From the NCBI GenBank assembly GCA_028716565.1, contig JAQUPL010000001.1:409476-473475 (forward strand): DNA of 64,000 nt, written 5' to 3'. The notes under the pieces were generated by a model. The model saw nothing but the letters and a program-made list of their open reading frames with translations, had not been told where the DNA came from and ran no database searches. Below, in pieces: positions 21,064 to 64,000 of the stretch. Positions within the stretch are counted from its first letter, which is position 1. Every line of letters begins with the position of its first letter. The position numbers were made by a program, and so were the translations under genes. The DNA is from Candidatus Omnitrophota bacterium. Lineage in GTDB: Bacteria > Omnitrophota > Gorgyraeia > Pluralincolimonadales > Pluralincolimonadaceae.

Positions 21064-22436
21064 TGGAAGAACCTCTTCAGGAGGAACTTGAAATGCCGCG
21101 GAGACTTGATCGCCAATATGTTCTTTATCATTATTCCCGGCCGCATATAAAATCTTAAGAAAGCTTCACGTTGCAAAGATTTGACCTGTTTTTGGTTCAA
21201 GCCGTCTCCCGCGTACGGGGCGCTCATAAAATAAAACCTGTCCCAGTCAACACCGCCCAATTTCCCCTCTGAAGCCAACTCCTTATAACTGGCCGTGCCG
21301 GGAAAAGGCAGGTACGTAAAATAATTCGCCCTGATCAAACCCAGATCAAGCGAAAAACGGATCGTTTTCCTGATGTCCTCTTCTTTCTCGCCCGGGAAGC
21401 CAACGATAAAAAATCCCGCCACATCTATCTTAAACCGGCGGATCATGTCTATCCCCTTCCGTATCTTATCGGTGGTGGTCCCTTTCTTCATTAAGGCAAG
21501 TACCCTGTCTGAGCCTGATTCTATCCCTAATGAAATAAGGTAAAGGCCGCTTTTTTTCATCAGCACAAGCATTTCTTCGTCCAGGCAGTCTATGCGGACC
21601 CCGTTCGGGGTCGCCCAGCTTATACCCAAGTGCAAATCGGCGAGTTTCCGCAGCAATTCCTTTGCGTAGGCCCTGTCAAAAGTAAAGTTATCGTCTATAA
21701 TATGGAACTCACGTATGCCATGCCTATCATACAGATACTTGATCTGCCCTAGGATGAAATCTACGCTGTGCTTCCGTATCTTCTTCCCCCCTATTATGTT
21801 ACCCGCGCAAAACGTGCAGGAGAAAGGGCAACCGCGGGTGACTATTATAGGCGCTATGGGGAACTTCCTGAAAACGGCGCCGTGCTGGCATTCGGGATAT
21901 TCCTCGGGCCGGATAAGGTCCCATGCCGGCATTCCCAAGCTGTCCAGGTCTTCGACGAATATCTGGGGATTTATGCGCACACGGCCGTTCTCCCTCCACC
22001 CTAACCCGGGGATATCCGAAAGGTCCCGGGGTCCTTTTTTCCCAAGCCTGTCGAGCAGAATAGGCAGGCCTTTTTCGGCTTCCCCGACGAAGATGAAGTC
22101 CAAAGGAGCGCCGAAATACTTAATGCTCTCTTCGGGGGCGGCAGAAGGATGCGGCCCGCCCAGGACAGTTATCAAGCCCGGCTCCAGGTTTTTGCATCCT
22201 TCCAGGGCCTCCTTGACGAATTTCAGGTCGAACGTATAGCACTGGAAACCGACGACATCGGGCTTTGCCTCTTTGACCATACGGATCAAGGCATCCGCCT
22301 TCATGCCTTTTTTAATGCAATCAAGTATCGTCACATTATGCCCTGCCTTCCTGCACGACTCGGCCAAATAGCCCAGGCCCAGGGAAGGCTGGATATGATC
22401 GCTGAGGTTATAAGGTTTTACCAGTAAGATGTTCAT
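21045..22436 (-). CDS. B12-binding (class B) radical SAM protein
   Basis: RGCPFSCTFCAGN CxxxCxxC and an N-terminal B12-binding-like domain. Confidence 0.75.
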   Translation of the reverse strand: MNILLVKPYNLSDHIQPSLGLGYLAESCRKAGHNVTILDCIKKGMKADALIRMVKEAKPDVVGFQCYTFDLKFVKEALEGCKNLEPGLITVLGGPHPSAAPEESIKYFGAPLDFIFVGEAEKGLPILLDRLGKKGPRDLSDIPGLGWRENGRVRINPQIFVEDLDSLGMPAWDLIRPEEYPECQHGAVFRKFPIAPIIVTRGCPFSCTFCAGNIIGGKKIRKHSVDFILGQIKYLYDRHGIREFHIIDDNFTFDRAYAKELLRKLADLHLGISWATPNGVRIDCLDEEMLVLMKKSGLYLISLGIESGSDRVLALMKKGTTTDKIRKGIDMIRRFKIDVAGFFIVGFPGEKEEDIRKTIRFSLDLGLIRANYFTYLPFPGTASYKELASEGKLGGVDWDRFYFMSAPYAGDGLNQKQVKSLQREAFLRFYMRPGIMIKNILAIKSPRHFKFLLKRFFHWVIMK

Positions 22437-34155: not shown

Positions 34156-35649
34156 TTAGAAATACTTCTTTTGGTATTCTTCGCTCAATTTCTTGAATAT
34201 CGCTTCGCTTCCCGGTTCAAGATTCTCAACTTTTTCGATATCAGGCCACATCGCTTCCGGGAACTTCACATAGAGACAGAATGTCTTGAGGAGCTGGTTG
34301 AGGCGCTCCTTTGTAATATTCTTGTTCTTTATGACACTATTCTGCAGGAGCGAGGCATTCGTGACAGAGCGGTCGATAAGGCCGTCCTTTACGCAAAGGT
34401 CATATAATCTCGTCCCGGTATAGGGATAGAATATGAAAACGCTCACCGTATCCGACCTTACCTTCCTGTTCAATCTTATGGTGTCAAAGATGAGTTCGCG
34501 CGTCTCATAGGGGAACCCTATGATATTGTTGACGCTCAGGGGGACGCCCACTTTATTGATGGTCTCGGTGGCCCTGATAAATTGATCGTTGGTAAAGTTC
34601 TTCCTTATTATCTTTCTCCTGAATTCCTCGTTGCCGTGTTCGAGCCCGACGGTGATACGGTCGCAGCCGCAATCCTTAAGCAGCCGCACCTTATCTTCGC
34701 TTATCGTCTCCACCCGCGACTGGCACCAGAAAGGAAGGCCGACCTCGTCCCTTATCCTCGACATCAACTTCACTAATACATCATCTCGGAGCGTCAGGAA
34801 AGTGTCGCTGTTAAAATAAAGGTACTCGAGACGGTATTTTTCCGCCATCTCTTTCATCTCTTCGATTATCTTCCCGGGGTCCTTCTTCCTGAAATAGCAT
34901 CCGCCGTTCTGCTCCCGGTACCAGTTCCGGTAAGCGGGCGAGGCACAAAAACTGCAGTCATAAGGGCATCCCCTGTCAAAGTCTACAGGCAGCATCCTGT
35001 ACATCTTTCCCTGCATGGGGCTGTGCAGCCTCTTTGGGTCAAAAAGCGAATAGTCGGGGGTAGGCAGCTTGTCCAGGTCGACCAGCGGCCTGACCTTGTT
35101 CTTGACGACCTCGCTGCCGCGCCTAAAGCATAAGTTTTGGACGTCCGAGTGATCCAGGCCGTTTTGCATCCTTTCGCATAATTCCACCAAAGCGCCTTCG
35201 CCTTCGCCGAGGCAGATGGAATCTATCTCCTTATTCTCAAACGCCTTCTCCTTGAGGTAAGAGATATAAATGCCGCCGAAGATGGTCGGCGGCCTGTCCT
35301 TACCCAACGATCCTATCAGCCTTAAAGCTAGCGGCATCGTGTCTTCCACGACCGTAACGCCTATCAGGTCGGGCTTGAATTCAGCGACCTTTTTTTTGAA
35401 ATCTTCGGTAACATCCGTTTTTTTGATGGATATCCCGTAATCCTGGGCGTCATAGCTCCTTACCTGCAGGTACGACTTCCGGATCTCGTCCGGGTTCTCC
35501 ATGTCGGTGCAGTAATATGTGGTATCGAACAACCCGACTTCAAAACCCTTCTGCTTAAGGCAAGCCGTGAGCAGCCCTATGGACGGGGGAAGCAGGTTCT
35601 TCATCATCATGTTCGGATATACCAACAGCGCTTTTATGTTATTCTTCAT
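34156..35649 (-). CDS. B12-binding (class B) radical SAM protein
   Basis: RGCPYDCSFCASPAY and an N-terminal B12-binding-like domain. Confidence 0.75.
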   Translation of the reverse strand: MKNNIKALLVYPNMMMKNLLPPSIGLLTACLKQKGFEVGLFDTTYYCTDMENPDEIRKSYLQVRSYDAQDYGISIKKTDVTEDFKKKVAEFKPDLIGVTVVEDTMPLALRLIGSLGKDRPPTIFGGIYISYLKEKAFENKEIDSICLGEGEGALVELCERMQNGLDHSDVQNLCFRRGSEVVKNKVRPLVDLDKLPTPDYSLFDPKRLHSPMQGKMYRMLPVDFDRGCPYDCSFCASPAYRNWYREQNGGCYFRKKDPGKIIEEMKEMAEKYRLEYLYFNSDTFLTLRDDVLVKLMSRIRDEVGLPFWCQSRVETISEDKVRLLKDCGCDRITVGLEHGNEEFRRKIIRKNFTNDQFIRATETINKVGVPLSVNNIIGFPYETRELIFDTIRLNRKVRSDTVSVFIFYPYTGTRLYDLCVKDGLIDRSVTNASLLQNSVIKNKNITKERLNQLLKTFCLYVKFPEAMWPDIEKVENLEPGSEAIFKKLSEEYQKKYF

Positions 35650-49808: not shown

Positions 49809-50588
49809 TTATTTTATACCTGTCCTGTTTATGGAACGGCCTTTTAAAGGCTCCAATATCCCGGGCTCATCATCAAGCAACTTGATGATGTCGCCGGTAT
49901 CGAATAATTTGTTCACCGGGTAAAGCCGCCCGTATATCCTCCTCATGACCTCAAGGTCCGCCTCGGTATCGAGGGCAAGATGGATATCCGGCCGGTTAAA
50001 TTTTGCCGGGGCCGGATACCGGTACGACGAAAATAACTCCGGGTGGCTTTTAATGAAATAATTTGTGTGCTCGAAATTATTGCTGTCCGAATTGTAAGGG
50101 GCGCGGCACGCCGTCTCATGCGCCCTGGATAACGCGGAAAATCCGGCCACCTGCATATCTATGCCTACGGGATAAGAGTCCTCCAGGCAATTCGATACCA
50201 GGTCATACGCATTCTTGAAGAAGAAATCGACGCCTTCATCTATTAACGAAGGAGAGATGCATGAGCAATCGCCGGTGACCAAAACAAGCGCCTTCGCGGC
50301 TGCGACCGTCCCCGCTCCCACTACCCTTCCCAGGACATCCGTTTCGCTGCCCCGGTAGCATCCGGCCCCGAACCTTTTCGCGATCGGCAGCAGCCGGTCG
50401 TCGCTGTCTTTTTCGGTCGTCGCTACCACCACCCCTTTGACATTTTTACACGCCGAAAGCCTTTCTATGACCGCCCCCAAAGCGGGAAGCCCCGGGTACA
50501 GGTCAAGCGCCATCTTTCCGGGAAGGCGCGTAGACCCCATCCTGGCCTCTATCACGGCGTATACCTCTTTCGCGGTTTTCATGGTCAA
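49809..50588 (-). CDS. CTP_transf_3 cytidylyltransferase (SpsF/PseF-like CMP-nonulosonate synthetase)
   Basis: AVIEARMGSTRLPGKM nucleotide-binding motif. Confidence 0.65.
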   Translation of the reverse strand: MTMKTAKEVYAVIEARMGSTRLPGKMALDLYPGLPALGAVIERLSACKNVKGVVVATTEKDSDDRLLPIAKRFGAGCYRGSETDVLGRVVGAGTVAAAKALVLVTGDCSCISPSLIDEGVDFFFKNAYDLVSNCLEDSYPVGIDMQVAGFSALSRAHETACRAPYNSDSNNFEHTNYFIKSHPELFSSYRYPAPAKFNRPDIHLALDTEADLEVMRRIYGRLYPVNKLFDTGDIIKLLDDEPGILEPLKGRSINRTGIK

Positions 50589-51502
50589 ATAAACCTGTCG
50601 CCTTTTGCGAAATCACGGGCCGGCCTTCCGCCCTCAGCTGCCACATCGCTTATCCATATAGCCCTATCCCCGGCAGACACCAAAAACGAGCGTTTATTGC
50701 CCTTCTTTCGCACCGACAGTATTTCACCGGCATCTCCGGCCGCCCTCCGGGAGCCGCCGATCTTCGCGCTCCAAACAAAATACTTTACGCCCTTGCTATA
50801 TGTGAACGCGCCGGGATAAGGACGGGTCAGGGCCCGTATCCAGTTGTAAACATCGATAGCCGGGGCGTTCCAGTTGATGCGCCCGTCTTCCGGCCGCCGC
50901 TTCGGCCAAAACTTACGGTTCCCGGAAACATTCTTTATCCTGCGCGCGCGCCCCGCCTCGATCTCAGGCAGGTGCCTGCTGATCAAACGGCACACCGCCG
51001 ACGCGGCCTTGTCGTATACCGTAGCGCAAGTGTCCTTAATACTTATCGGAAAACTCATTTGGGCAATTATATCCCCGGTGTCCGCCTGAGGGTCGCAGTA
51101 GAACATGGTAACACCGGTCTTCTTCTCTCCGTTTATTATCGCCCAGTTCACGGGCGCGCGGCCCCTGTATTTTGGCAGCAATGAAGAATGGAAACCTATC
51201 GCGCCTTTGCCGGGGATCTTCAATATCTCCGCGCAGACCAATCTTTGCCAGCCGCATATCACTATCAATTCCGGTCCCATCTTTTTAATGCGCGAGATAT
51301 TCGCAGGATCGTTGAGGTCCTTTACCCTGTACAGCGGTATGCCGTGTTTCCTGGCGACCGCAGAGAAATCCGAGAACCCCGAGGTCCTGCCGGCATATTT
51401 CCGGGAGAGGGTAAATATGGCCGCAACATCGCCGCCGTCTTTTATCACCTGCCTCAGGCATTTCATTCCAATCTCGACGCAACCTATAAAAACTATCCTC
51501 AT
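50585..51502 (-). CDS. formyltransferase (Fmt/ArnA N-domain family; sugar N-formyltransferase-like)
   Basis: HSSLLPKYRGRAPVNWAI (HxSLLPxxxG) and MFYCDPQADTGDII motifs. Confidence 0.75.
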   Translation of the reverse strand: MRIVFIGCVEIGMKCLRQVIKDGGDVAAIFTLSRKYAGRTSGFSDFSAVARKHGIPLYRVKDLNDPANISRIKKMGPELIVICGWQRLVCAEILKIPGKGAIGFHSSLLPKYRGRAPVNWAIINGEKKTGVTMFYCDPQADTGDIIAQMSFPISIKDTCATVYDKAASAVCRLISRHLPEIEAGRARRIKNVSGNRKFWPKRRPEDGRINWNAPAIDVYNWIRALTRPYPGAFTYSKGVKYFVWSAKIGGSRRAAGDAGEILSVRKKGNKRSFLVSAGDRAIWISDVAAEGGRPARDFAKGDRFI

Positions 51503-51504
51503 CC

Positions 51505-52179
51505 CTATTTTCGCACTTCCCTTATAAGCCTGAACGGCTCGGCATATTTAATGCCCGCCGAGATCCCCCAGTAATTCGCGTAAGCCTTTATGGCTTCGGG
51601 GCTCCTGGGATGCGGGTACGGCCTGGCTTCGCTTTCGTACCGCGACATCGCCGCCGTCTTCACCCCGATCTCGCCGGCGATATCGAGAAATATATTAGGT
51701 ATGAACAGGTCCTCTTTTTCCATGGAGTTCCATTCGGTAGTGGAAGCCACATTATACGTGAAAAGCCTTTTTATCTTCTGCCCGGGGATGGGCCTAGCGG
51801 CGGTTATCGACGCCTCGTATACTATCCGGTGGTCCTTGTTCAGGTCCGCGGCGTGGTGGGTATACAGGCTGTCCGCATCCAGCCGCGATATATATTTTTC
51901 TATGCACCCGATGATATCTGAAAGCGCGATGGTATCGAACTTCTGGTTCGGGAAATCCTCGAAAAAGACTTTCTTGGTTCCGACCTTCTTATTCGCCTCA
52001 AGGGCGTTCTTCCTGAGCGCCGCAGCCTGCCGCGGCGAATACCTGCCCTTTGCGCCGTCCGTCAGGATCACGACGTATGAATCGATGCCGCATTTCTTTT
52101 GCTTGGCGATCAGGCCTCCGCATCCCAATATCTCGTCATCGGGGTGCGCCGCGATTATCAAGTTTTTCATCGGCTCCAC
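51505..52179 (-). CDS. PIG-L/LmbE-family N-deacetylase
   Basis: IIAAHPDDEILGCGG motif. Confidence 0.7.
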   Translation of the reverse strand: MEPMKNLIIAAHPDDEILGCGGLIAKQKKCGIDSYVVILTDGAKGRYSPRQAAALRKNALEANKKVGTKKVFFEDFPNQKFDTIALSDIIGCIEKYISRLDADSLYTHHAADLNKDHRIVYEASITAARPIPGQKIKRLFTYNVASTTEWNSMEKEDLFIPNIFLDIAGEIGVKTAAMSRYESEARPYPHPRSPEAIKAYANYWGISAGIKYAEPFRLIREVRK

Positions 52180-53009
52180 CTGTGTAATATGGTCCTGGTT
52201 TTTTCGATCACGGAAAACCCGTTCCTGATGTAAAAATTCATAGCCGCAATATTCCCGATCTGCGTTTCAGTCACCATTTCAAAACGCCTAAAATGCCTGA
52301 TAACATGCCGTATCAACGCGGTGCCCACGCCTGCGCCCGCGAACTTTGCCGCTACCGCCACATAGGCCAAAAAGACCTTTTTCTTCCGCGCATCCTTATG
52401 GCACAGGATTACTCCCGCAGCTTCACCGCCGATTCGCGCGGCGAAGAGAGACCGCGTTGCGGAAGGTTTGAAATTTTTTAAATAACTGATCCAAAGCAGG
52501 TCTGCTTTTTCTTTCCGTATATGCCGATCGGTATGGAAACGGTCGCATGTGAATACCGAGCCCAGTCTGGAATACGGCAGGCCCTCATTCGTTTCCAGCT
52601 TTTCTATCTTACAACCAAGCGCTCCTCTCTTGGCGTGCGCAGCCATAGACCTCCCGGCGCAGCATTCCCTATCCTGATATTTAAGGGTTACTTCGGTATT
52701 AATGTATTTAAAACCGGCAGAATACAAAAAATCTAATACCTTTATTCCGGTCGCCGTGTCGATCTTGGCGGTAATAAATGTATCCTTAAAGGATCTCCTG
52801 AACTTTTCGTCAAGCTCGGAGGACGGCGTCAATTCCAGCCTGCCGGCATCCAGCAGAAAAGAAGGCCTTCCGAAAAAACCGGTGTCCCACGACAAAAATT
52901 TCAGGCGGATCTTCGCGCCGGCCGCCTTAAGCGTGATGTCTTTCATATATTTCATCCACTGCCTCCCTGATAGAGTCTGTCCTCGGGAAAATGCCCGGGT
53001 CCACGGCAA
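52167..53009 (-). CDS. GNAT-family N-acetyltransferase (PseH/WecD-like position after the PseG-like gene)
   Basis: C-terminal VAVAAKFAGAGVGTALI acetyl-CoA motif. Likely internal start MKYMKDI at about 52955. Confidence 0.5.
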   Translation of the reverse strand: MPWTRAFSRGQTLSGRQWMKYMKDITLKAAGAKIRLKFLSWDTGFFGRPSFLLDAGRLELTPSSELDEKFRRSFKDTFITAKIDTATGIKVLDFLYSAGFKYINTEVTLKYQDRECCAGRSMAAHAKRGALGCKIEKLETNEGLPYSRLGSVFTCDRFHTDRHIRKEKADLLWISYLKNFKPSATRSLFAARIGGEAAGVILCHKDARKKKVFLAYVAVAAKFAGAGVGTALIRHVIRHFRRFEMVTETQIGNIAAMNFYIRNGFSVIEKTRTILHRWSR

Positions 53010-53931
53010 CGCTGCGGCGCAGCGCCTCTTTTACCATTACGGGATCGATCGTCCGGAATCCCATATAACGGGCGTATCTTTTCTTATCAAAATATTCGCA
53101 CCTCGTGACTTGATGTTCATACACCGCCGTCAGTAAAGCCGGCGTACGCGTACAGACCAGTTCATACGCGGTAAGCCCCCCCGCGGAGATAGCAAGGTCG
53201 CAATTCATATATTCCTGGAACATGCTCGCAATATTCTGTTTTAATTCATACTTTAGCGCCAGGTCACCGAGCCTGCGCTTCAGCGTTTCCCTGTATCTAT
53301 AACCCGAGCCCAGGATAATATGCAATTCCAGCGAGGTATCGAGGCCTGCCAGCGCCTCTACCGCCTTTTTTGTGAGGTCAAATTCATCGGCTCCGCCTAG
53401 CGTTATCAATACAGTCCTGACCGTCTCTTTATCCTTCCTTTCGCGTATACGATCGAATTGAAAGTCGGCCGGCAGGATCACATACTGCGGCCCAAGGAGG
53501 AAACGCGCCCTGCCTGCCGCGCGCCCTCTAAAGGTCTCCTCAGCCGATACATCCCAGTTCACGACCAGGTCGAAATCGTCCGGCACGGCGCCGTCAAAGC
53601 ACACACACGCCTTTATCGCTTCAGGCGTTATCCCGCGGTAATCAGCCAGCGGCCTTTCAGTGATCTCAAAGAAGGCCGCGTCGATACCGTTCTTCTTTAT
53701 ATACCTGTTTATGTTGTCCACCTCTTCTTCGATGCCGCTGTCCGGGTCGATCACGCTCAGGTTCTTTAACGCGTGTTTTTCTGCCAGCGCTAGGCCCAGG
53801 TCATACCCCCTGATGATAAAATGCGCTCTCCAGCCCTCCTTCTCAAAATACCTGGACAGGTGTATCAGGGAGACCAGGTCACCCGTGCCGATACAGGTTT
53901 TAGCGTCTGCCCTGAATACTATGTTCTTCAT
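52927..53931 (-). CDS. PseG-like UDP-sugar hydrolase (pseudaminic acid biosynthesis-associated, MurG-like fold)
   Basis: MKNIVFRADAKTCIGTGDLVSLIHL N-terminus and C-terminal LITLGGAD...CDLAISAGGLTAYEL resemble PseG. Confidence 0.5.
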   Translation of the reverse strand: MKNIVFRADAKTCIGTGDLVSLIHLSRYFEKEGWRAHFIIRGYDLGLALAEKHALKNLSVIDPDSGIEEEVDNINRYIKKNGIDAAFFEITERPLADYRGITPEAIKACVCFDGAVPDDFDLVVNWDVSAEETFRGRAAGRARFLLGPQYVILPADFQFDRIRERKDKETVRTVLITLGGADEFDLTKKAVEALAGLDTSLELHIILGSGYRYRETLKRRLGDLALKYELKQNIASMFQEYMNCDLAISAGGLTAYELVCTRTPALLTAVYEHQVTRCEYFDKKRYARYMGFRTIDPVMVKEALRRSVAVDPGIFPRTDSIREAVDEIYERHHA

Positions 53932-55001
53932 CTCAAAATGTCCGCCCAGGTAAGAGGTTCGCCTGACGGAATATCCCTTTTAGCGGTGACCCTGTGATCC
54001 TCGAATAAGCTCATATATTCCGGCGCAAGCCCATGCGCCTTTTTGCCGGGCCTGAGGACGGCGATGTGCGAGGGCTTTATTGCCTTCCCTTTCTTAATGT
54101 CCCTGCGCGCAAAAAGGCTCATGAAGGCAAAATCCCTCAGGTAACGTTCATGGGGAAATGTCACCTTGGCCGTCGTGCCGTACAAAAGTTTATCGATAGT
54201 GAAATTTTTACGCTTATGCGCGGTTTCTGCCGACCTGACATCCTTTACCATCTTTTCAATCTCATCCGGTTCCAACGCAAAGAAATGGTCAGGACCCGCC
54301 ATTTTTCTGTCCAGGGTAATGTGTTTTTCTATGATAGAAGCGCCGAGATAGACCGCCTGTACCGCGGCGTCGGAGACCTCTGCGGTGTGGTCGGAGAATC
54401 CGACCGCGATGCCCGAAAAAGCCAGCTTCAAGGTCTCTATCACCCCAAGGTTGCAGTCCTTGAGCGGCGTCGGATACTTCAACGAGCAATGTAAGAGCGC
54501 TATTTTATCATGATAACGTTTAACGGTAAAAACTGCCTTTTCAACCTCGCCCAGGCTCGCTCCGCCCGTGGAGATGATTACCGGAAGCCCGGTCTGCGCG
54601 CACTGTTGGAGCAACGGCAGGTTTGTAATCGAATACGAAGCGATCTTGATCCGTTTCAGTCCCTTCTCAACCATTGTCCTGAGCCCGCGCGCGTCGAAAA
54701 CAGAGGCGAGGAAATCTATCTTCTTCCCTGCGCAATGGCGCATGAGCCGCGTAATCCACGCTTCGGGCATTTCAAACCGCTTTGCCGCATCGAAGATATC
54801 GTAAGAATATGCCCCTTTGGCGTCTTTCCAGTCCAGTTTGCCCGCCGTCTCCGGATAAAGATATTTCGCTTTGAAATGCTGGAACTTCGCGGCATTACAG
54901 CCCGCGGCTGCGGCGGCGTCGATCATCTCCAGGCAGTTATCGAGAGAGCCGTTATGGTTGATGCCTATTTCCGCTATTACATAGACCGGCCTGTCAGGCA
55001 C
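53928..55001 (-). CDS. NeuB/PseI-family nonulosonic acid synthase with C-terminal SAF domain
   Basis: VIAEIGINHNGSLDNCLEMIDAAAAAGCNAAKFQ TIM-barrel motif and a C-terminal SAF-like region. Confidence 0.8.
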   Translation of the reverse strand: MPDRPVYVIAEIGINHNGSLDNCLEMIDAAAAAGCNAAKFQHFKAKYLYPETAGKLDWKDAKGAYSYDIFDAAKRFEMPEAWITRLMRHCAGKKIDFLASVFDARGLRTMVEKGLKRIKIASYSITNLPLLQQCAQTGLPVIISTGGASLGEVEKAVFTVKRYHDKIALLHCSLKYPTPLKDCNLGVIETLKLAFSGIAVGFSDHTAEVSDAAVQAVYLGASIIEKHITLDRKMAGPDHFFALEPDEIEKMVKDVRSAETAHKRKNFTIDKLLYGTTAKVTFPHERYLRDFAFMSLFARRDIKKGKAIKPSHIAVLRPGKKAHGLAPEYMSLFEDHRVTAKRDIPSGEPLTWADILR

Positions 55002-56041: not shown

Positions 56042-57154
56042 TCAGCGTAAGGGGTATCGCAATTGCCACTTCCCGCCCTCTTTCTTCCAGATCTCGGGAT
56101 TCCTGTGCTTATCCACTATCTCATGGAAATCTTTTTCTGTAAGATCCAGGTATTCCAGCATATCCTTGAAATAATACGCCGGGAATTCATCGTCGTATTT
56201 TTTTGCCAATTCCAGGCCCTGCTCCCTGGTGAGCTGCTTATTCTGGATCATCCTGCTGGCATCCCTCACCGCCCTGCCGAAACCGAACTTTATGAACTGC
56301 ATGTAATAGTAAAGGTTGTCGGACTTGTCATCGAGGCTGTCGAAATCGGTGTAGGTCCCTTCCGACCTTCCGGTGGGGCATGTCTTGAAGTCGAATTTTT
56401 CCTTTATGTACAGGAAGTTCTCGTAACTGCTCCATTTGAAGAAATAACCGAAGTAAAGCGCCTTTACTCCCACCTTCCTGACTTCCTCCAGGCCGGGATA
56501 GAGGTAAGGATTGAGGTCCTTCGCCGTGATTTTGTCGTCTACCCAGTTCCTGGGATCGTCGCCTATCTGGTGCTCTATGACCTCGGTAAAGTCCCGCAGT
56601 TTCTTCGACTCCTCTTTCAGGACCTTCCCCCCGTATTCGCTCTCCCCGTGTTCGGCGTAAAAGACCAGCGGCACCTTGTAATTCACCGCGGCCTGGACGG
56701 GTATCGTATTGACGCCGGCGTCCCATGCTACCTTATGGTTGCCGCGTTCTATAAAGAACCTGCGCGACAGCCGACGGTGTATGCGCTGGTTGGGGCGGAA
56801 GAAAAGATGGTCGAAACCAAGTTGGACCATCATCTCGCGGTTGTAGTTTCCCACATCAGTAGGCAGCTGCGGGGAGAATGTCGTCATGAGCGGGTTCATC
56901 CCGAACTCATATTTCAACTTGTATGCCACGGCGCTGCTGTCCTTTCCGCCGCTCCACGGTACGATACAGTCCCATGACCCGTTTTCGGACCGATATTGCC
57001 CCAGGAGGTCGAGGAATTCCTTTTTTCTGGCCTGCCAATCTATGCCTTCCCATTTATTCTCGGCATTCCTGCACGCGTTGCAAATACCTTCCTTGTCAAA
57101 AGATATCCTCGGCCTGGTGGAAGGCATGAGGCACCGTTTACAATAAATGACCAT
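56042..57154 (-). CDS. N-acetyl sugar amidotransferase (WbpG/WbuX family), second copy
   Basis: CKRC...CNAC zinc ribbon and CIVPWSGGKDSS PP-loop. Confidence 0.7.
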   Translation of the reverse strand: MVIYCKRCLMPSTRPRISFDKEGICNACRNAENKWEGIDWQARKKEFLDLLGQYRSENGSWDCIVPWSGGKDSSAVAYKLKYEFGMNPLMTTFSPQLPTDVGNYNREMMVQLGFDHLFFRPNQRIHRRLSRRFFIERGNHKVAWDAGVNTIPVQAAVNYKVPLVFYAEHGESEYGGKVLKEESKKLRDFTEVIEHQIGDDPRNWVDDKITAKDLNPYLYPGLEEVRKVGVKALYFGYFFKWSSYENFLYIKEKFDFKTCPTGRSEGTYTDFDSLDDKSDNLYYYMQFIKFGFGRAVRDASRMIQNKQLTREQGLELAKKYDDEFPAYYFKDMLEYLDLTEKDFHEIVDKHRNPEIWKKEGGKWQLRYPLR

Positions 57155-57171: not shown

Positions 57172-57945
57172 TTATGTCCTGACATCGATACCCGAGTCCT
57201 TCAGGAAATTTTTCGCGCTCTTTATGCTCGTTTCCGTAAAATGGTATATATTCGTGGTGCAGACAGCCGACGCGTGGCCGTCCTTAAAGCCGTCCACAAA
57301 ATCCTGCCATTTCCCCGCGCCTCCGCATACGAGGACCGGTATCCCTACCTCATCGGCGACCATCCTGTTAAGCCCGTTATCGTATCCTTCCAAAGAACCG
57401 TCCTTATCTATGGAAGATATAAATATCTCTCCCGCGCCGAGGCCTTCGGCCCTTTTTGCCCATTCCGCCGGGTCCAGCCCGGATTTCTTCCTGCCAAAAT
57501 CCGTGAAAACTTCGTATTTACCCCGTTCGTCTTTCTTCGCGTCGATGGAGAGGACGACGCATTGCGAGCCGTACAGCTTTGCAGCCTCGCTGATGAACTC
57601 CGGCCGTTCCACCGCCGCAGTATTGATGACCACTTTATCCGCACCCAAACCAAGCAGCGTCTTAAAGTCCTCAATGCACCTTACCCCGCCTCCGGCCGCA
57701 AGAGGGACAAAGCATTTTTCGGCGAAGCGGCCCACGACATCATAAAAATTCTTCCTCTCTCCGGTGCCTGGACGGGTCACGTCCAGGACGACGATCTCAT
57801 CGACCGACCAGGAATCTACGAAATTCAGGGTATAACGGTAATCCGGGCAGAAATCTTTAGTCCGGAAAAGGACCCCGTTATTGAACGTCAGGACGGTTAT
57901 CAGCCTGTTCTTAAGCATGCCGGGCCCCGGCCAAAAAATTCTCAA
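57172..57945 (-). CDS. HisF-like imidazole glycerol phosphate synthase cyclase-subunit homolog (WbuZ/HisF2-like)
   Basis: (beta/alpha)8 HisF motifs VPLAAGGGVR, GADKVVINTAAV and VLVCGGAG. Probable start MLKNRLI at about 57918. Confidence 0.75.
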   Translation of the reverse strand: MRIFWPGPGMLKNRLITVLTFNNGVLFRTKDFCPDYRYTLNFVDSWSVDEIVVLDVTRPGTGERKNFYDVVGRFAEKCFVPLAAGGGVRCIEDFKTLLGLGADKVVINTAAVERPEFISEAAKLYGSQCVVLSIDAKKDERGKYEVFTDFGRKKSGLDPAEWAKRAEGLGAGEIFISSIDKDGSLEGYDNGLNRMVADEVGIPVLVCGGAGKWQDFVDGFKDGHASAVCTTNIYHFTETSIKSAKNFLKDSGIDVRT

Positions 57946-58528
57946 GCATCTTTAACCCGTGGAGCTGGCTCTTCTCCGGATGGAATTGTGTCGCGTATAT
58001 GTTTCCGCGGTTAAGTACGGCGGCGAACCGGTTTCCATATTCGCATTCTCCGATGACATCATCCGGATTGGCGCACCGGATATGATAACTGTGCACATAA
58101 TAAAAAAGTGCGTCCTGCGGGATCCCGTCGAAAAGCATGTTCGCCTTCCGCTGGATAAGGCCGTTCCACCCGACATGGGGGATCCGGACGCCCGGCGCAT
58201 CTATCTTTACCACCGACGCATCGATCCATCCGAGGCCTTTATGGTGGCCGAATTCAAAACTCTCTTTTGCCATCAGTTGCGACCCCAGGCATATACCAAG
58301 GACGGGTTTATGTTCCCTAAGGACCATCCTGTCAAGCGCATCTGCGAGCCCCAACCGGCGCAGGTTCCCGATGCCGTCCCCGAACGCGCCGACTCCGGGT
58401 ATTATGATCTTTTCGCACTTTTCCAGCCCGGCGGGATCGGCGGTGATAAGAGGCTCATAATTCAGTTTCCTGACCGCGCCTGCGACCGAACGGAGGTTGC
58501 CCAGGCCGTAATCGACGATGGCTATCAT
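57911..58528 (-). CDS. HisH-like class I glutamine amidotransferase (WbuY/HisH2-like)
   Basis: MIAIVDYGLGNLRSV N-terminus and catalytic GICLGSQLM. Start at 58528 forms an ATGA overlap with the upstream stop. Confidence 0.75.
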   Translation of the reverse strand: MIAIVDYGLGNLRSVAGAVRKLNYEPLITADPAGLEKCEKIIIPGVGAFGDGIGNLRRLGLADALDRMVLREHKPVLGICLGSQLMAKESFEFGHHKGLGWIDASVVKIDAPGVRIPHVGWNGLIQRKANMLFDGIPQDALFYYVHSYHIRCANPDDVIGECEYGNRFAAVLNRGNIYATQFHPEKSQLHGLKMLENFLAGARHA

Positions 58529-60213
58529 CGGGGACCTGCCGGAGGCACGGTCTCGACATTGAAGACCTTGACCCATTCGTTGAAGACATGCTTCCTGTAT
58601 TCGCTCCTGTCATACTTGCCGTTCTTTCCCCATCCGAACCAGCGGTTCACCGGCGCGCTGAAACCCCTTTTATCGACACGCGCTGCTATTTCGGCCGGGA
58701 TGAACTTCTTCGCTACCCTCTTCAGTATCCATTTGGTGACACCATCCTTGATCTTATACTTGGACGGCATGCTGAATGCGAACTGGATAAGCCGGTAGTC
58801 CAAAAACGGCGCGCGGTTCTCGACATGAAAAGCCATGTTGATCCTGTCGGCGAACTGCAGGAGCTCTTGCATGCTCGTATAGAAATCCGCGAGCCCCATG
58901 GCGTGGATATGGTCGTTATTTATCCTCCCGAAGAAATCCCCTATCGTCTCCTCAAGGTACTTCACGACTTCCTGGTTATATTTGTTCTCACAGCGGTTCA
59001 CGATCCTGGCGTACCTCTCCACCGTGGAACCGTAATAACGGTCTATGAGGTAAGAATACTGTCTGAGGGCCTCCAGCTGCTTTATGCTCTCATCGTGGTT
59101 CAAAAGGTGGTAGCGGTGATACCCGGAAAATATCTCATCCGCCCCGTCCCCGGAAAGGACGACCTTTATATCCCTGCTGGCGCGCTCAAGGAGCATCCAG
59201 AGGCTGAAGCTGGTCCAGGTGCACGGCGTATCAAGATGGTATACGATCTTTCGGTTCGTTCGGCGGAAATCCTCCTGCGTGGGCCTGACCACCACCAGCC
59301 TCTTCTTGATCTTTTTCGCGACAAGCTGGGCATAATGCAATTCGTCATAGTCCTTGGCTATGGGATAATGGCACGTGTAGATGTAATCCGGCTTGGCAAT
59401 GCAGGCGATCAGCGCGCTGTCCACGCCGCCGCTCACGAATGTCCCGAAACGGTGCACGCAATTCTTCGTCCTCAAAAGTATGGAATCGACAAGAAGGTCT
59501 GTCAACCGCGACTCTATCTTCTTAAGGTCATCCGGCATCTCCGTCAGGTTGTCCCATATCTTCCAATATGAGTGTTTCGTCACGTTAAGCGCCCTGTCGA
59601 TCTTCAGGTAGTCGCCAGGCATCAAGCAGTAGATGTCTTTGAACAGGGTCTTCTCGCCGGTGTTGAACTCGAACGCCTCATACGAAAGGCACTCGCGGTT
59701 GTAGATGGGCTTCACCAGTTTAAGCAGCGCTTTGATCTCGCTCGCAAAAGCGAAAAAATCACCGCTGCGTACATAATACAACGGTTTTTCTCCCGCCCTG
59801 TCCCGGACGATATACATCTCTTTATCCCGGCCGTCATAGATAGCGAACGCATACATACCGTTATAATCACGGAACGAAGAAGTTTTTTGTTTCAGGTAAT
59901 GGCAAAGCACAGTCTCCGCATCCGATTGGGTCTTGAACTCATACTCTCCGCGGTATGAACGCCGTATATCTTCGTGGTTATAGATCTCGCCGTTATATAC
60001 GATGACAGCCGAGCCGTCCGGCGCCTCATAGGGTATATCGTGCCTTTCCTTGTCGATGATGCTCAGCCTCACCATCCCCAGCGCCAGGCCCTTACGGGAA
60101 TAGATCCCGGACTGGTCCGGGCCGCGGTGGCTGATCTCCTTCAGCATATCATGCACGATCTGCCGCGGGTCATGTTCGGGGTTGTTCGATATGTAGCCGG
60201 CTATTCCGCACAT
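58525..60213 (-). CDS. asparagine synthase (glutamine-hydrolysing) family amidotransferase, second copy
   Basis: MCGIAGY nucleophile Cys and SGGVDSA PP-loop. Confidence 0.8.
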   Translation of the reverse strand: MCGIAGYISNNPEHDPRQIVHDMLKEISHRGPDQSGIYSRKGLALGMVRLSIIDKERHDIPYEAPDGSAVIVYNGEIYNHEDIRRSYRGEYEFKTQSDAETVLCHYLKQKTSSFRDYNGMYAFAIYDGRDKEMYIVRDRAGEKPLYYVRSGDFFAFASEIKALLKLVKPIYNRECLSYEAFEFNTGEKTLFKDIYCLMPGDYLKIDRALNVTKHSYWKIWDNLTEMPDDLKKIESRLTDLLVDSILLRTKNCVHRFGTFVSGGVDSALIACIAKPDYIYTCHYPIAKDYDELHYAQLVAKKIKKRLVVVRPTQEDFRRTNRKIVYHLDTPCTWTSFSLWMLLERASRDIKVVLSGDGADEIFSGYHRYHLLNHDESIKQLEALRQYSYLIDRYYGSTVERYARIVNRCENKYNQEVVKYLEETIGDFFGRINNDHIHAMGLADFYTSMQELLQFADRINMAFHVENRAPFLDYRLIQFAFSMPSKYKIKDGVTKWILKRVAKKFIPAEIAARVDKRGFSAPVNRWFGWGKNGKYDRSEYRKHVFNEWVKVFNVETVPPAGPR

Positions 60214-60216
60214 AGT

Positions 60217-61566
60217 CTATTTTGAAAGGTCCAGCGACCCGTCTCCCACCTGGTGGTAACGTATGGGATCCCCAAAACGGAGGTGTTCCCATATCCCGTA
60301 ATTATCGATGATCAGCTTCACTTTCTTTTTGGCATTCCTCACCTTTTGCGGGGCTATGCATTTGTACTGGTTGTGGTCGGAGGCGACCACCACGACATCC
60401 GCGGAGAATACCTTGGACGGGAACGATCTCACCGTGACGCCTTTTATGTACCTGCGTATCTCATCCCCGGTGCAGTACGGGTCGCATATGGAGACCTTCA
60501 ACCCGTTTTTTATGAGATAGTCCGCCAACGTAACCGATGGGGAAAGGGTCAGGTCTTTCTGGTTGCCTTTATAAGTTATGCCCAGTATCTCCACGCTCTT
60601 ATAACCGTGCCGGATGATATAGTCCGCATAACTGAGCACTGACGAAATGCCTATATCCTGGAACTCCTTAAGCAGGGTAAGGTTCCCCGGCTTGTCGCTG
60701 CCTTCTATGAGATAGTCTGTCGAGAACGTCATCTTTTCCCCGCCGGTGCCGATGTTCAATTCGCAATCGGCGAGCGAGATATTGCCGAAAAGGGCTTTCG
60801 ACATCTTCTTCATATTCACGAACGGATACCCCATCGCGAGCTGGCGCAGGAAATCTATGGCCATCGCCTGGATGACGTTCATGGAATTTGCGTAGATCTC
60901 GGCATCTTTTATGCTGTCGAGCATTATTACGGGCAGGCCGAGATGTTCAAGGAGCCTGCGTATCGCCTCCGAACCCTTCGGGCAGCACCCCGCAACGGGC
61001 ATCTTGTCCTTTTTACCGATAAATGCCTCCACGCTCCAGTCTGTCCGGAAAAAGACCCCCACATGATAATCCTTTGATACAGTTATCCTCTCCTTACGGA
61101 GCTTGTCTATGAAGTTCTTCTGGATGTTCCCGGGGATGAAAGCCGATTCGAATATCACCAGGGGGACCGTACCGCTCTTTTTTATATTGCGGGCGAAGAT
61201 CACCGCCATCCTGGACGCAATGGTGTCCTTCCCCGTGTTCTTGCGGCTCTCCGGCATCGCGATGATATGCAGGCGGGAATCTTTGAACATCTCCTCCGCG
61301 CTCTTCGCCACCTGGATGGACGGATAATCCAGTTTCGGCAGGAACCCGTTAAGCGACCAGGTCGCCTTTTGGTTGTTGTCGGGATACCTGCCCCCCGTGA
61401 AGGCCTTAAGCTGCCCGGCATTCAGGTCATAGACCTTGACCTTGAACCCGCTCGTCTGCAGCTTGAATATCGTGGTGTATCCCAGATAGCCAAGGCCCCA
61501 GACGGAAACCGTCTTGTTCTTCATGATATTTTCGAATATCATCTTACCCTCCGCTCTTAAGGACAT
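60217..61566 (-). CDS. UDP-glucose/GDP-mannose dehydrogenase-family homolog, divergent in catalytic region
   Basis: VWGLGYLGYTT NAD motif and C-terminal ILGITYKGNQKDLTLSP UDP-binding motif. The expected GGHCxPxD region reads GTGGEKMTFSTD. Probable start MIFENIM at about 61542. Confidence 0.55.
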   Translation of the reverse strand: MSLRAEGKMIFENIMKNKTVSVWGLGYLGYTTIFKLQTSGFKVKVYDLNAGQLKAFTGGRYPDNNQKATWSLNGFLPKLDYPSIQVAKSAEEMFKDSRLHIIAMPESRKNTGKDTIASRMAVIFARNIKKSGTVPLVIFESAFIPGNIQKNFIDKLRKERITVSKDYHVGVFFRTDWSVEAFIGKKDKMPVAGCCPKGSEAIRRLLEHLGLPVIMLDSIKDAEIYANSMNVIQAMAIDFLRQLAMGYPFVNMKKMSKALFGNISLADCELNIGTGGEKMTFSTDYLIEGSDKPGNLTLLKEFQDIGISSVLSYADYIIRHGYKSVEILGITYKGNQKDLTLSPSVTLADYLIKNGLKVSICDPYCTGDEIRRYIKGVTVRSFPSKVFSADVVVVASDHNQYKCIAPQKVRNAKKKVKLIIDNYGIWEHLRFGDPIRYHQVGDGSLDLSK

Positions 61567-62755
61567 CGTTAATGGTCTCGATCACGTAATCAACGTCCGG
61601 ATCAGACATTCCGGGATACATAGGTATGGATACTATCTCCTCGTAAGCGCGGTCCGCCGCGGGAAAGTCCGAATGGATGAGATCCTTATAGAAAGGATGC
61701 TTATGCAGCGGGATAAAATGCACGCTCGTGCCGATATTGCGCGCCCTGAGCTGCTTAATGAATTCGTCCCTGGGGATGATATCCTTGCCGATGCGCATGG
61801 TAAAGAGGTGGTAAATGTGGTAGTGTTCCGGCTTGTCCTCGGAAAAACGGGCGCGCGGATCAAGGCCGGCCCGGTAGAGCGATGCGATGCGCCTCCGCCT
61901 CTCGTTCATCCGGTCCAGTTTTTTAAACTGCTCAAGGCCTATGGCGGCATGGATGCTGTCCATGTTATATTTATAGCCGATCTCCTCTATCTCGTAGAAC
62001 CAATTGCCTTTTTGGGAATAACGGTTGAAGGCTTCCTTGTTGATGCCAAAATAACTTAATTTCCGCATCTTCTCTATCATTTTCTTGTCCCGGGAAACCG
62101 CCATGCCCCCTTCGCCGCATGCCAGGTTCTTGGTAGCGTAGAAACTGAAGACGGAGACATCCCCGAAGCTGCCGATCTTCCTGCCTTTATATTGCGTGCC
62201 GATGGCGTGCGCGGCATCCTCTATGACCGTCAGGCCATGCTCTTTGGCCGCGGAAAGTATCGCATCCATCTCGCACGGATAGCCCGCAAAATGGACCGGC
62301 ATGATTGCCTTGGTCCGCGGATTGATAAGGGACTTCATCTTTTCGACGTCGATATTAAGGGATGACTCATAGACATCGCATAATACGGGTGTTGCTCCGG
62401 TCCATAAGACCACGTGGCCCGTAGCGGCAAATGTCCATGTCGGGACTATCACCTCATCCCCTTTACCGATACCGCAGGCCAATAAGGCCAGGTAGAGGCC
62501 CGCCGTGCAGGAATTCAGGGCTACGGCATTGGCCTGGCCTCCGAGATATCCCGTCACGGCATTTTCAAATTCCGTCACACGCGGCCCGGTAGTCAAATAC
62601 CCGCTCCGGATGACTTCGGCCACCGCCTCGATCTCTTCGGTCCCCATAAACGGCTTTGCCAGCGGCAAAAATTCATTACGCATTTTGTACGGTCTCCCCT
62701 GTTCCCTGGTTGCCGATCTCCGGATACCAGGAATCGCATCCTTTACACACTTCAT
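61544..62755 (-). CDS. DegT/DnrJ/EryC1/StrS-family PLP-dependent sugar aminotransferase, second copy
   Basis: DAAHAIGT...VFSFYATKNLACGEGG. Probable start MRNEFLPLAKP at about 62683. Confidence 0.8.
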   Translation of the reverse strand: MKCVKDAIPGIRRSATREQGRPYKMRNEFLPLAKPFMGTEEIEAVAEVIRSGYLTTGPRVTEFENAVTGYLGGQANAVALNSCTAGLYLALLACGIGKGDEVIVPTWTFAATGHVVLWTGATPVLCDVYESSLNIDVEKMKSLINPRTKAIMPVHFAGYPCEMDAILSAAKEHGLTVIEDAAHAIGTQYKGRKIGSFGDVSVFSFYATKNLACGEGGMAVSRDKKMIEKMRKLSYFGINKEAFNRYSQKGNWFYEIEEIGYKYNMDSIHAAIGLEQFKKLDRMNERRRRIASLYRAGLDPRARFSEDKPEHYHIYHLFTMRIGKDIIPRDEFIKQLRARNIGTSVHFIPLHKHPFYKDLIHSDFPAADRAYEEIVSIPMYPGMSDPDVDYVIETINDVLKSGG

Positions 62756-63542
62756 CGATCAATTCCATCGTTTCGTGCTGCCTCCGCAGGTCCTTATAAG
62801 ACCGGCAATTCCATATCGCTTTGATGGGCGAGGTATTGGCGTCCCCCAGCGGCGAACTGTTCCAATCGTGGTTGCATCTTCCCACTTTACCGTCAAAAAA
62901 TATAAGCATCTCATAGAACGGCATCACGCACCCCACACGCCCGCTCCTCTTCACGCCAAGGGAGCCGAACGTGCCGTTACGGGAATGTTCCTCATATATA
63001 CGTATGCGGTCTACCTTGCCATTCCATATGTTTTTGAAGATCTCCGCGTTCCGGGGCGGCGTCTCCGGTGTTTTTACCATTGAGACCTGGGTTTTAACGC
63101 GGCCTTTATTCATTTTTAAGAACTGCAGTATTGCGGCCTCGACCTTGTCGTATTTCGCCGGCGCGCGCGTCTTGTTGTATACTTCCGGGATATCGAGGCT
63201 GAATGAGATAAAATTTATCGCCTCGATGACCGCCTTTGACTTCGGCCCGTCTAAGAGCGTCGCGTTGGTCGCCATCTGGACTTCCTTGAATTTACCCTTC
63301 ACATACCCGCATATCTCGATGAAATCCGGGTGCAACAAGCTCTCCCCGCGCCTGTGGAGCACGAGGATCGTATCCGGATACGCTGATATCTCATCGATCA
63401 GCCTTTTAAAGAATGAGAGGTCCATGAAACCGCGGAGGTCGTCCACGTACCTGCGCGGGCAATAGGAGCAGCGCAGGTTGCACGAAGCCGCCAACTCGAT
63501 CTCTATCCTCCGGGGGAAATCCCCCGCATCATATTTCTTCAT
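62676..63542 (-). CDS. radical SAM protein with C-terminal Cys-rich SPASM/twitch-like extension
   Basis: ASCNLRCSYC (CxxxCxxC) and additional Cys clusters CVMPF...RCNHDW and CKGCDSW. Confidence 0.65.
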   Translation of the reverse strand: MKKYDAGDFPRRIEIELAASCNLRCSYCPRRYVDDLRGFMDLSFFKRLIDEISAYPDTILVLHRRGESLLHPDFIEICGYVKGKFKEVQMATNATLLDGPKSKAVIEAINFISFSLDIPEVYNKTRAPAKYDKVEAAILQFLKMNKGRVKTQVSMVKTPETPPRNAEIFKNIWNGKVDRIRIYEEHSRNGTFGSLGVKRSGRVGCVMPFYEMLIFFDGKVGRCNHDWNSSPLGDANTSPIKAIWNCRSYKDLRRQHETMELIDEVCKGCDSWYPEIGNQGTGETVQNA

Positions 63543-64000
63543 GCCATAAGCCCGATCGTTTTGTTCCTTACGGTTTCCAGCACCTCTTTTGAAGTGAAGG
63601 CGAGCGGGTCGACCAATTCGCTCACGATAGCGTTAGCCCTTTTCAGGTCGCCGGGTTGGTCGATAGTCAACCTTATCCCATGCAAAAATTCCGGGTTGAG
63701 CCCGGCGTCGATGAATTTTGCCGAAAATTCCTGCGGATGCGACGTTATGTATTTTGTCACGTGCTCCAGGTCTTCTTTTTCCCTGGTCCTCATCGCCGCC
63801 TTCTCCAGGGCTTCCGCGGTTACCGCCTCCGAATAGAAACCGGACGCGCATGTGCTGCGCTCCAATGAAGCATAATCCAGTTTTTCTGCGATGAGCGCCT
63901 TCAGCAGCGTATTGACTAAAGCGGTATCCACGAAAGGGGTATCCGCGCACACGCGGACGACGTATCCGGCGTTCACCGATCCGGCTGCCCGTATGTACCT
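63539..64000 (-). CDS. CTP_transf_3 cytidylyltransferase-like, C-terminal part only (N-terminus beyond window)
   Basis: RLTIDQPGDLKRANAIV resembles the conserved SpsF/NeuA C-terminal block. The reading frame stays open to the window edge. Confidence 0.4.
   Translation of the reverse strand, partial: RYIRAAGSVNAGYVVRVCADTPFVDTALVNTLLKALIAEKLDYASLERSTCASGFYSEAVTAEALEKAAMRTREKEDLEHVTKYITSHPQEFSAKFIDAGLNPEFLHGIRLTIDQPGDLKRANAIVSELVDPLAFTSKEVLETVRNKTIGLMA

Follow-up and report, generated by a model that had tools for sequence, protein, structure and literature searches.

A twitch-type radical SAM enzyme in a conserved nonulosonic-acid gene module, a candidate BtrN-like dehydrogenase paired with a DegT aminotransferase

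Nonulosonic acids, sugars akin to sialic acid, are found on flagella, S-layers and lipopolysaccharides and, to our knowledge, every characterised route to them obtains the keto-sugar for amination from NAD-dependent enzymes of the short-chain dehydrogenase/reductase (SDR) family. What, then, does a radical S-adenosylmethionine (SAM) enzyme contribute when it is encoded beside the aminotransferase of such a pathway? The question is raised by a stretch of 64,000 nucleotides of contig JAQUPL010000001.1 from Candidatus Omnitrophota bacterium (assembly GCA_028716565.1), hereafter the window, in which a minus-strand open reading frame (ORF) with an ATG start encodes a radical SAM protein of 288 amino acids (aa) next to a DegT-family aminotransferase (Table 1). 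We propose, with moderate confidence, that this protein is a BtrN-like radical alcohol dehydrogenase that feeds the DegT enzyme in a nonulosonic-acid pathway of anaerobes. This proposal rests on the modelled fold, the arrangement of cluster ligands, the closest relatives and the gene partnership, from which we infer the oxidase chemistry, the order of the two enzymes and the nature of the substrate.

Judged from its homologues, the ORF is clearly a genuine gene and not a chance reading frame, since a database search returned 573 of them at E ≤ 1e-3 (the closest at 93% identity) and the best 120 of the 573 are alike in identity (56–93%) and length (281–308 aa). The identical protein is annotated on four public contigs, and one of them (NCBI GCA_028714115.1, contig JAQTMX010000004.1) gave a further 10 kb past the window end. 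Exactly as the original prediction, made from the DNA letters, had it, the 288-aa product carries the motif ASCNLRCSYC and C-terminal cysteines. By its sequence it is a member of the radical SAM superfamily: the residues AASCNLRCSYCPRRY form a CX3CX2C motif at C21/C25/C28, and Pfam family PF04055 (Radical_SAM) matches residues 18–148 at 40.8 bits, above the gathering cutoff of 29.5. Names given to the homologues in databases are generic or wrong, including 'sulfatase maturation enzyme AslB', a label attached to two of them by the Joint Genome Institute (JGI). None of the NCBIfam models reaches its cutoff on the protein, the best being partial matches to TIGR04317 (W cofactor maturase; 83.7 against a cutoff of 380), TIGR04321 (spiro-SPASM; 61.7 against 250) and NF033640 (N-terminal twitch radical SAM; 50.5 against 170).

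Residue conservation was read from an alignment of 59 ortholog sequences, in which only seven cysteines are invariant (59/59): C21, C25 and C28 of the N-terminal motif, together with C205, C223, C266 and C269. C246 is not conserved, and the protein has no cysteine downstream of C269. The C-terminal four follow the pattern C205-X12-G218-X4-C223 ... C266-X2-C269, in which G218 is also invariant, and fall within residues 205–270, the region matched by PF13186 (SPASM) at 37.3 bits against a cutoff of 21.5 in the profile check that had been proposed for this protein. A full SPASM motif has seven cysteines, CX9-15GX4C-gap-CX2CX5CX3C-gap-C (PMC6231123); the truncated version, the twitch domain, holds one auxiliary cluster (PMC6231123, PMC9012708) and keeps the motif's first four cysteines (PMC6231123). 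Because the second half of the motif is absent here, only CX12GX4C and CX2C being present, the C-terminal domain is by its sequence a twitch domain with one predicted auxiliary cluster, and of the earlier label 'SPASM/twitch' it is the second word that holds. The AlphaFold (AF2) model of the protein (predicted local distance difference test 91, predicted template modelling score 0.90) has a beta/alpha core of six strands and, after it, a beta-hairpin (211–221) and a helix (247–258), which as modelled are the canonical twitch elements. Six arginines (R64, R65, R126, R199, R202 and R222) are invariant in the same alignment, which suggests an anionic substrate bearing a nucleotide, phosphate or carboxylate. 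H186, N224, H225 and D226 are invariant as well.

BtrN, the 2-deoxy-scyllo-inosamine dehydrogenase of butirosin biosynthesis (PDB 4M7T/4M7S), is the nearest solved relative by a wide margin, both in sequence and in modelled fold. In a single-sequence search of solved structures it ranked best (E 9e-6), followed by SpeY (E 0.027), and with a family profile its E value was 1.5e-17, the match covering the core (29.9 bits) as well as the twitch domain (35.5 bits); all other solved SPASM/twitch enzymes (CteB, EpeE, anSME, SpeY, ChlB) were matched by the profile at E 1e-5 or worse and in the core only. Foldseek with the AF2 model likewise placed BtrN first (E 6e-12, template modelling (TM) score 0.72 normalised on BtrN), ahead of SuiB, BlsE, SkfB, anSME, DesII, ChlB, MoaA, EpeE and SpeY. 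Like the window protein, BtrN is a small twitch radical SAM enzyme with a CX3CX2C motif, and in the alignments its four C-terminal cysteines pair one-to-one with C205/C223/C266/C269, which answers the earlier caution that these cysteines might not align to auxiliary-cluster ligands. Its barrel is abridged and so differs from the six strands of our model. SpeY of spectinomycin biosynthesis (PDB 7WZV), deposited as a 'twitch radical SAM dehydrogenase', acts on a sugar or cyclitol hydroxyl and is matched in both sequence and fold, but far more weakly than BtrN (profile E 1.9e-4, core only, TM ~0.4). No tRNA- or rRNA-modifying radical SAM enzymes stood among the best relatives. The original prediction had envisaged dehydratase, epimerase or C–C bond-forming roles; the nearest characterised relatives are instead twitch dehydrogenases, BtrN and more distantly SpeY. 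DesII, which it had offered as a comparator, is a weaker match.

BtrN also supplies a precedent for the gene partnership, as BtrS, an aminotransferase of the DegT family, aminates the ketone that BtrN makes. The surroundings differ: the window gene lies in a NeuB, or nonulosonic-acid, cluster with no 2-deoxy-scyllo-inosose synthase among its neighbours, which include NeuB, PseG-like, WbuX and cytidylyltransferase genes and so do not make a 2-deoxystreptamine context. The substrates would differ as well, that of BtrN being a cationic aminocyclitol and that of the window enzyme being anionic, as the invariant arginines predict.

To see how far this context is conserved, we scanned loci from one genome per species, which returned 66, and counted module genes in 38 ortholog loci (49–67% identity), with denominators given by the loci that had enough flanking sequence. 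The module consists of a cytidylyltransferase, the radical SAM enzyme, DegT, a UDP-sugar dehydrogenase-like (UGDH-like) protein that lacks the catalytic cysteine, and an AsnB-like amidotransferase, usually with NeuB and a PseG-like gene after it. DegT adjoins the radical SAM gene in 34 of 36 ortholog loci; the UGDH-like gene follows in 31/34 and the AsnB-like gene in 32/34. A standalone cytidylyltransferase of 210–240 aa lies directly upstream in 22/34, while NeuB and the PseG-like gene are each found within 10 kb in 11 of 16. Gene order was confirmed in individual operons through public gene calls. Hosts include Omnitrophota, Nitrospirota (among them Magnetominusculus), Nitrospinota, Desulfobacterota (Desulfobacterales), Campylobacterota (Sulfurimonas, Helicobacter), Gammaproteobacteria, Planctomycetota (Scalindua), Cloacimonadota and one archaeal (Hydrothermarchaeota) metagenome-assembled genome (MAG), so that the module spans no fewer than eight phyla of bacteria besides the archaeal MAG. 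These are lineages that we take to be mostly anaerobic or microaerophilic, and the module looks widespread and horizontally shared in anaerobes. In one locus (L078) it directly follows a NusG-like gene, which suggests that it stands at the head of its operon. The pathway around the radical SAM gene is, from its gene content, a nonulosonic-acid (NeuB) pathway; the sugar-pathway setting first proposed thus proved correct, and stronger than first seen because the module is conserved across phyla.

A 577-aa fusion of the radical SAM enzyme to DegT (P0121; L076, JGI 3300034488 contig Ga0376403_368, 1909-3642) was set aside as most likely a frameshift artefact, because the DegT and UGDH-like genes are both fragmented on its contig. 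Genuine fusions of a cytidylyltransferase-like domain to distant homologues of the radical SAM enzyme do exist (P0243), at only 31% identity to the window protein.

Paralogs of the enzyme, at 27–33% identity, occupy a second conserved NeuB cassette, found in Methanospirillum lacunae, Omnitrophota, Planctomycetota, Cytophagia and others. Its order is PIG-L, WbqC, carbamoyltransferase, a first radical SAM gene, a class III aminotransferase with an overlapping start, cytidylyltransferase and a second radical SAM gene, followed sometimes or often by a B12-dependent radical SAM gene and then by NeuB and a PseG-like gene. The class III aminotransferase, of a pyridoxal 5'-phosphate (PLP) family unrelated to DegT, directly follows the radical SAM gene in 7 of 10 such loci, with a weaker 34% match in L056. 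This pairing with aminotransferases from two unrelated families would be hard to explain unless the product of the radical SAM enzyme is aminated, or the reverse. The loci of this cassette, which methanogens and several bacterial phyla have in common, include L051 6811-19685 (Methanospirillum lacunae NZ_CP176093.1), L046, L047, L049, L050, L052 and L054.

The third gene of the coupled set had been called a UDP-sugar-dehydrogenase homolog, a description that fits its UDPG_MGDP_dh fold and fails at its active site. Its 'GTGGEKMTFS' aligns to 'GFGGSCFPKD' of 3vtf; the catalytic cysteine is absent in 29 of 31 cassette orthologs, with lysine or arginine in its place, and the lysine and aspartate of GGxCxxKD are also lost, while the NAD-binding WGxGYLGY motif and the UDP-binding domain are retained. 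Lacking these three residues it cannot, going by the alignment, carry out the canonical four-electron oxidation that yields a uronic acid, and so is not a canonical dehydrogenase of that kind.

At these loci the NAD-dependent enzyme that normally supplies the keto-sugar also appears to be missing, because no SDR reaches the PseB or LegB cutoffs, either in the 64-kb window or among three SDRs scanned from loci L022 and L026, and because in 12 of the 19 loci that hold 18.5 kb or more around the gene no extended SDR lies within 10 kb of it. PseB/PseC and LegB/LegC are the SDR 4,6-dehydratase and DegT aminotransferase pairs of the pseudaminic and legionaminic acid pathways. With its PseC-, PseG- and PseI/NeuB-like proteins, GNAT acyltransferase and cytidylyltransferase, the window cassette has every step of the pseudaminic acid pathway except PseB, and in the place of PseB or LegB it has the radical SAM, Cys-less UGDH-like and AsnB-like proteins.

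Given these observations, BtrN-like oxidation followed by transamination is the most economical model, one to which we lend about half our credence; it is supported by the lack of further conserved cysteines, the retained DegT lysine ('SFYATKNL'), the six arginines and the failure to detect PseB or LegB. The [4Fe-4S] cluster on C21/C25/C28 would reductively cleave SAM, and the 5'-deoxyadenosyl radical would take the carbinol hydrogen from an anionic sugar intermediate, which may be an amino sugar carried on a nucleotide, such as a UDP-hexosamine, or a nonulosonic acid, such as a CMP-nonulosonic acid. The substrate radical would then pass an electron to an all-Cys auxiliary [4Fe-4S] cluster on C205/C223/C266/C269, yielding a ketone or aldehyde, and the translationally coupled DegT aminotransferase would turn this carbonyl into an amine. 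With the five-gene module at the head of NeuB/PseG-like operons, the end product would be a CMP-activated nonulosonic acid of pseudaminic or legionaminic type in anaerobes. In BtrN the auxiliary cluster is ligated by four cysteines and is proposed to take up the electron as the enzyme oxidises an alcohol by two electrons (PMC9012708, PMC10337720).

Several observations weigh against this proposal, which draws on the sequence, fold and gene context of family members. Identity to BtrN is about 18%, and the Foldseek scores of SuiB, BlsE, SkfB, anSME and DesII lie within two orders of magnitude of that of BtrN. Position 188, which aligns to Arg152, the putative base of BtrN, is variable among the orthologs. 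Not all twitch enzymes with auxiliary clusters are dehydrogenases: some are dehydratases, and others carry out different reactions. Within the SPASM/twitch group, function tracks sequence similarity poorly (PMC6231123). Gene adjacency gives no reaction order, and the logic of DesI/DesII, in which amination precedes a radical deamination, uses the same gene pair; this logic and that of AprD4/AprD3 may both be compatible with the gene content. Oxidation by the radical SAM enzyme leaves the roles of the always co-occurring UGDH-like and AsnB-like proteins unexplained, the latter being unexplained by any model. Finally, an NAD-dependent oxidase may sometimes be present: in L022 (8419-9363) and L026 (8401-9390) an ArnA/UXS-like SDR, most similar to the UDP-glucuronate decarboxylase/ArnA oxidase families but below cutoff, takes the usual place of the cytidylyltransferase immediately upstream of the radical SAM gene.

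The UGDH-like protein is given a part in two other explanations. A radical dehydratase or deaminase of the AprD4/DesII/BlsE type, which we find doubtful here, would abstract a carbinol hydrogen and eliminate the neighbouring hydroxyl or ammonia to give a deoxy-keto sugar, with DegT acting before it (as in DesI/DesII) or after it (as in BlsH/BlsE) and the NAD(P)-binding UGDH-like protein serving as reductase partner, as AprD3 does for AprD4. Radical SAM–aminotransferase and radical SAM–reductase pairs do occur in desosamine, blasticidin S and apramycin biosynthesis, in line with such a reaction, as are the good fold matches to BlsE (7vob; Foldseek rank 5, E 7e-11) and DesII (8hzy; rank 8, E 3e-10) and the retention of the NAD-binding partner in most loci; yet the family profile that finds BtrN leaves both DesII and BlsE unmatched at E ≤ 0.01. 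An all-Cys4 auxiliary cluster suits net oxidation best (PMC9012708). Radical deoxygenation at C3 of the hexose in particular seems unlikely, because it would delete the hydroxyl that should be needed to close the nonulosonic acid pyranose ring. Alternatively, and in our view less probably still, the radical SAM and UGDH-like proteins could jointly replace the SDR 4,6-dehydratase (PseB/LegB) as a split, radical version of it. The former would oxidise C4 of a UDP-N-acetylhexosamine, the hydrogen ending up in 5'-deoxyadenosine; elimination of water across C5–C6 would follow, the UGDH-like protein, with a fold that places C6 of a UDP-hexose beside the nicotinamide, would give an external hydride to C6, and the resulting 4-keto-6-deoxy sugar would go to DegT. 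If so, this would be a new radical route to 6-deoxy-4-amino sugars and sugars of the pseudaminic and legionaminic type in anaerobic bacteria and archaea, with a sister pathway in methanogens that has two such radical SAM enzymes and a class III aminotransferase.

That the enzyme performs some further radical reaction on the sugar (C–C bond formation, ring rearrangement or uronic acid decarboxylation, for example) is improbable: radical SAM reactions are diverse, a UGDH-like gene is nearby, a UXS/ArnA-like SDR occurs in two loci and DegT scores equally for ArnB, a 4-keto-pentose aminotransferase, and for PseC, but the UGDH-like protein lacks the cysteine needed for uronic acid production and no specific likeness to any C–C-forming enzyme was seen. 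Twitch-domain radical SAM epimerases exist in aminoglycoside pathways, nonulosonic acid families differ chiefly in stereochemistry, and the fold matches include EpeE, which epimerises peptides, so that one might picture an enzyme of the NeoN/HygY type that removes hydrogen from a stereocentre of the nonulosonic acid or its hexose precursor and returns it to the opposite face, thereby setting the sugar configuration. NeoN and HygY use a cysteine as hydrogen donor; because no cysteine beyond the seven cluster ligands is conserved, the family has none to offer, and an epimerase would leave the near-obligate pairing with aminotransferases of two PLP families unexplained, which makes this, too, improbable in our judgement. 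Hardly credible at all is a peptide or protein maturase, either an anSME (AslB) or a SPASM maturase of ribosomally synthesised, post-translationally modified peptides (RiPPs), despite the AslB labels and the presence of SuiB, SkfB, anSME and ChlB among the fold matches. An anSME has ~370 aa, two auxiliary clusters and a sulfatase partner, against 288 aa, four C-terminal cysteines and no sulfatase nearby; the anSME profile match to the family covers the core only (E 1.4e-4), all NCBIfam maturase models fall far short of cutoff, and the neighbourhood consists of sugar genes in the 38 loci. A RiPP maturase would carry an N-terminal RiPP recognition element and lie beside a precursor gene, whereas the radical SAM core begins at residue ~10 and the flanking genes overlap the radical SAM gene, leaving no space for a precursor peptide. 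RiPP maturase, anSME and MoaA identities were accordingly rejected on size, cysteine count and context.

A BtrN-like oxidation would follow the same hydroxyl-to-carbonyl-to-amine logic as WbpB/WbpE and KdnB/KdnA, in which NAD- or metal-dependent oxidation precedes transamination of UDP-GlcNAcA or 3-deoxy-D-manno-oct-2-ulosonic acid (Kdo). There the oxidant is a GFO/IDH/MocA enzyme or an iron-dependent alcohol dehydrogenase; here it would be the radical SAM enzyme. DesI/DesII, BlsE/BlsH and AprD4/AprD3 share the pairing of a radical SAM enzyme with an aminotransferase or reductase, in deoxy-amino-sugar formation, but catalyse elimination and not net oxidation. Twitch radical SAM sugar oxidoreductases are already known as an enzyme type. 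In the literature that we searched, no paper connected radical SAM enzymes with the biosynthesis of nonulosonic, pseudaminic or legionaminic acids, and none dealt with the spiro-SPASM family or with the present one. Recruitment of a twitch radical SAM enzyme into a nonulosonic-acid module shared across phyla seems not to have been described before, and the same holds for the apparent lack of a canonical dehydratase. If the dehydrogenase assignment is right, radical SAM dehydrogenase chemistry would reach beyond the aminocyclitols of antibiotics into primary cell-surface glycan biosynthesis, a function would be defined for several hundred 'radical SAM/SPASM' proteins that lack annotation, and it would become easier to predict which nonulosonic acids Omnitrophota, Nitrospirota, anammox bacteria and methanogens make.

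Table 1 Features of the radical SAM gene and its operon in the window (all on the minus strand).
Feature	Position	Strand	Basis
Twitch-type radical SAM enzyme, 288 aa	62676..63542	-	ORF, Pfam, AF2 model; BtrN nearest solved relative
Codons of C21-N-L-R-C25-S-Y-C28 (CX3CX2C), predicted to bind the SAM-cleaving [4Fe-4S] cluster	63459..63482	-	Invariant in 59/59 orthologs; motif scan
Predicted twitch (truncated SPASM) domain, residues 205-270	62733..62930	-	Pfam SPASM, four invariant Cys, BtrN alignment, model
Upstream gene, 3' end (866 aa in full); C-terminal ~230 aa KdsB-like cytidylyltransferase	63539..64000	-	Stop overlaps radical SAM start
DegT/PseC/ArnB-like PLP aminotransferase, 379 aa from M25	61544..62683	-	Pfam DegT/DnrJ/EryC1 4e-126
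UDP-sugar 6-dehydrogenase-fold protein without catalytic Cys/Lys/Asp	60217..61542	-	UDPG_MGDP_dh_C 2e-19; TIGR03026 105 bits, cutoff 190
Asparagine-synthase-like glutamine amidotransferase, N-terminal Cys2	58525..60213	-	TIGR01536 389 bits, cutoff 267
HisH-like and HisF-like pair (ammonia supply, amidino formation)	57172..58528	-	Family matches
WbuX-type N-acetyl sugar amidotransferase	56042..57154	-	TIGR03573 340 bits, cutoff 203
NeuB-family nonulosonic acid synthase	53928..55001	-	Pfam NeuB 4e-74; NeuB_NnaB 292 and PseI 224 bits, both below cutoff
PseG-like nucleotide-sugar hydrolase	52927..53931	-	TIGR03590 109 bits, below cutoff 154; follows NeuB in many loci
GNAT acyltransferase, PIG-L deacetylase, formyltransferase (N-acyl exchange)	50585..53009	-	Co-conserved in many cassettes

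The window is a single long minus-strand glycan super-operon, transcribed in the order KdsB-like cytidylyltransferase domain, radical SAM enzyme, DegT, UGDH-fold protein, AsnB-like protein, HisH/HisF, WbuX, methyltransferase, NeuB, PseG-like protein, GNAT, PIG-L, formyltransferase and a second cytidylyltransferase. As first described, the DegT gene lies directly downstream of the radical SAM gene and the UDPG_MGDP_dh homolog comes next. The radical SAM start overlaps the upstream stop by 4 nt (ATGA), and its stop overlaps the DegT start by 8 nt (ATGCGTAA) if DegT begins at M25 (62683). This is the start used in public gene calls and most likely the correct one, the longest ORF giving an overlap of 80 nt; from these overlaps we take the radical SAM gene to be translationally coupled on both sides. 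The best NCBIfam scores of DegT are to ArnB (372 bits) and PseC (367 bits), both below cutoff. In Kuenenia, deacetylase/formyltransferase pairs of such clusters have been tied to nonulosonic acids with N-formyl groups or free amines (bioRxiv 10.64898/2026.04.20.719630). The upstream gene (L001 7404-10004) fuses ~630 N-terminal residues without a family match to its cytidylyltransferase domain, a domain that in other genomes stands alone (210–240 aa).

A scan for CX3CX2C in ORFs of at least 200 aa found exactly five in the window, which bears out the earlier count of five radical SAM genes of which four are class B. These four B12-binding genes (34156..35649, 22441..23913, 21045..22436 and 9755..11260, minus strand) are interspersed with genes for SAM methyltransferases, at least six in number, and for several glycosyltransferases, a gene content that suggests a heavily C- and O-methylated glycan; 'extended-backbone' C10 ulosonic acids have been reported in Magnetospirillum (bioRxiv 10.64898/2026.04.20.719630). 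Just past the window end there is a sixth radical SAM gene, again of class B, with a product of 481 aa. At 38089-39626 (minus strand), an HpcH/HpaI-type aldolase gene is directly upstream of a strong CTP_transf_3 cytidylyltransferase gene, and the pair may provide a NeuB-independent, pyruvate-aldolase route to another CMP-activated ulosonic acid. The amide- and amidine-forming set is unusually large for a single locus, with two WbuX-type N-acetyl-sugar amidotransferases (44673-45824 and that of Table 1, both on the minus strand), two AsnB-like amidotransferases (13188-15089 and that of Table 1, likewise minus), HisH/HisF and an amidase (43324-44676). Past the window end, an MptE-like (Maf-type) protein (L001 4955-5959) is encoded near more DegT, cytidylyltransferase, PIG-L and Epimerase_2 genes. 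Such domains are typical of the nonulosonic-acid transferases that glycosylate flagellins, and its presence hints that the pathway product may be attached to protein.

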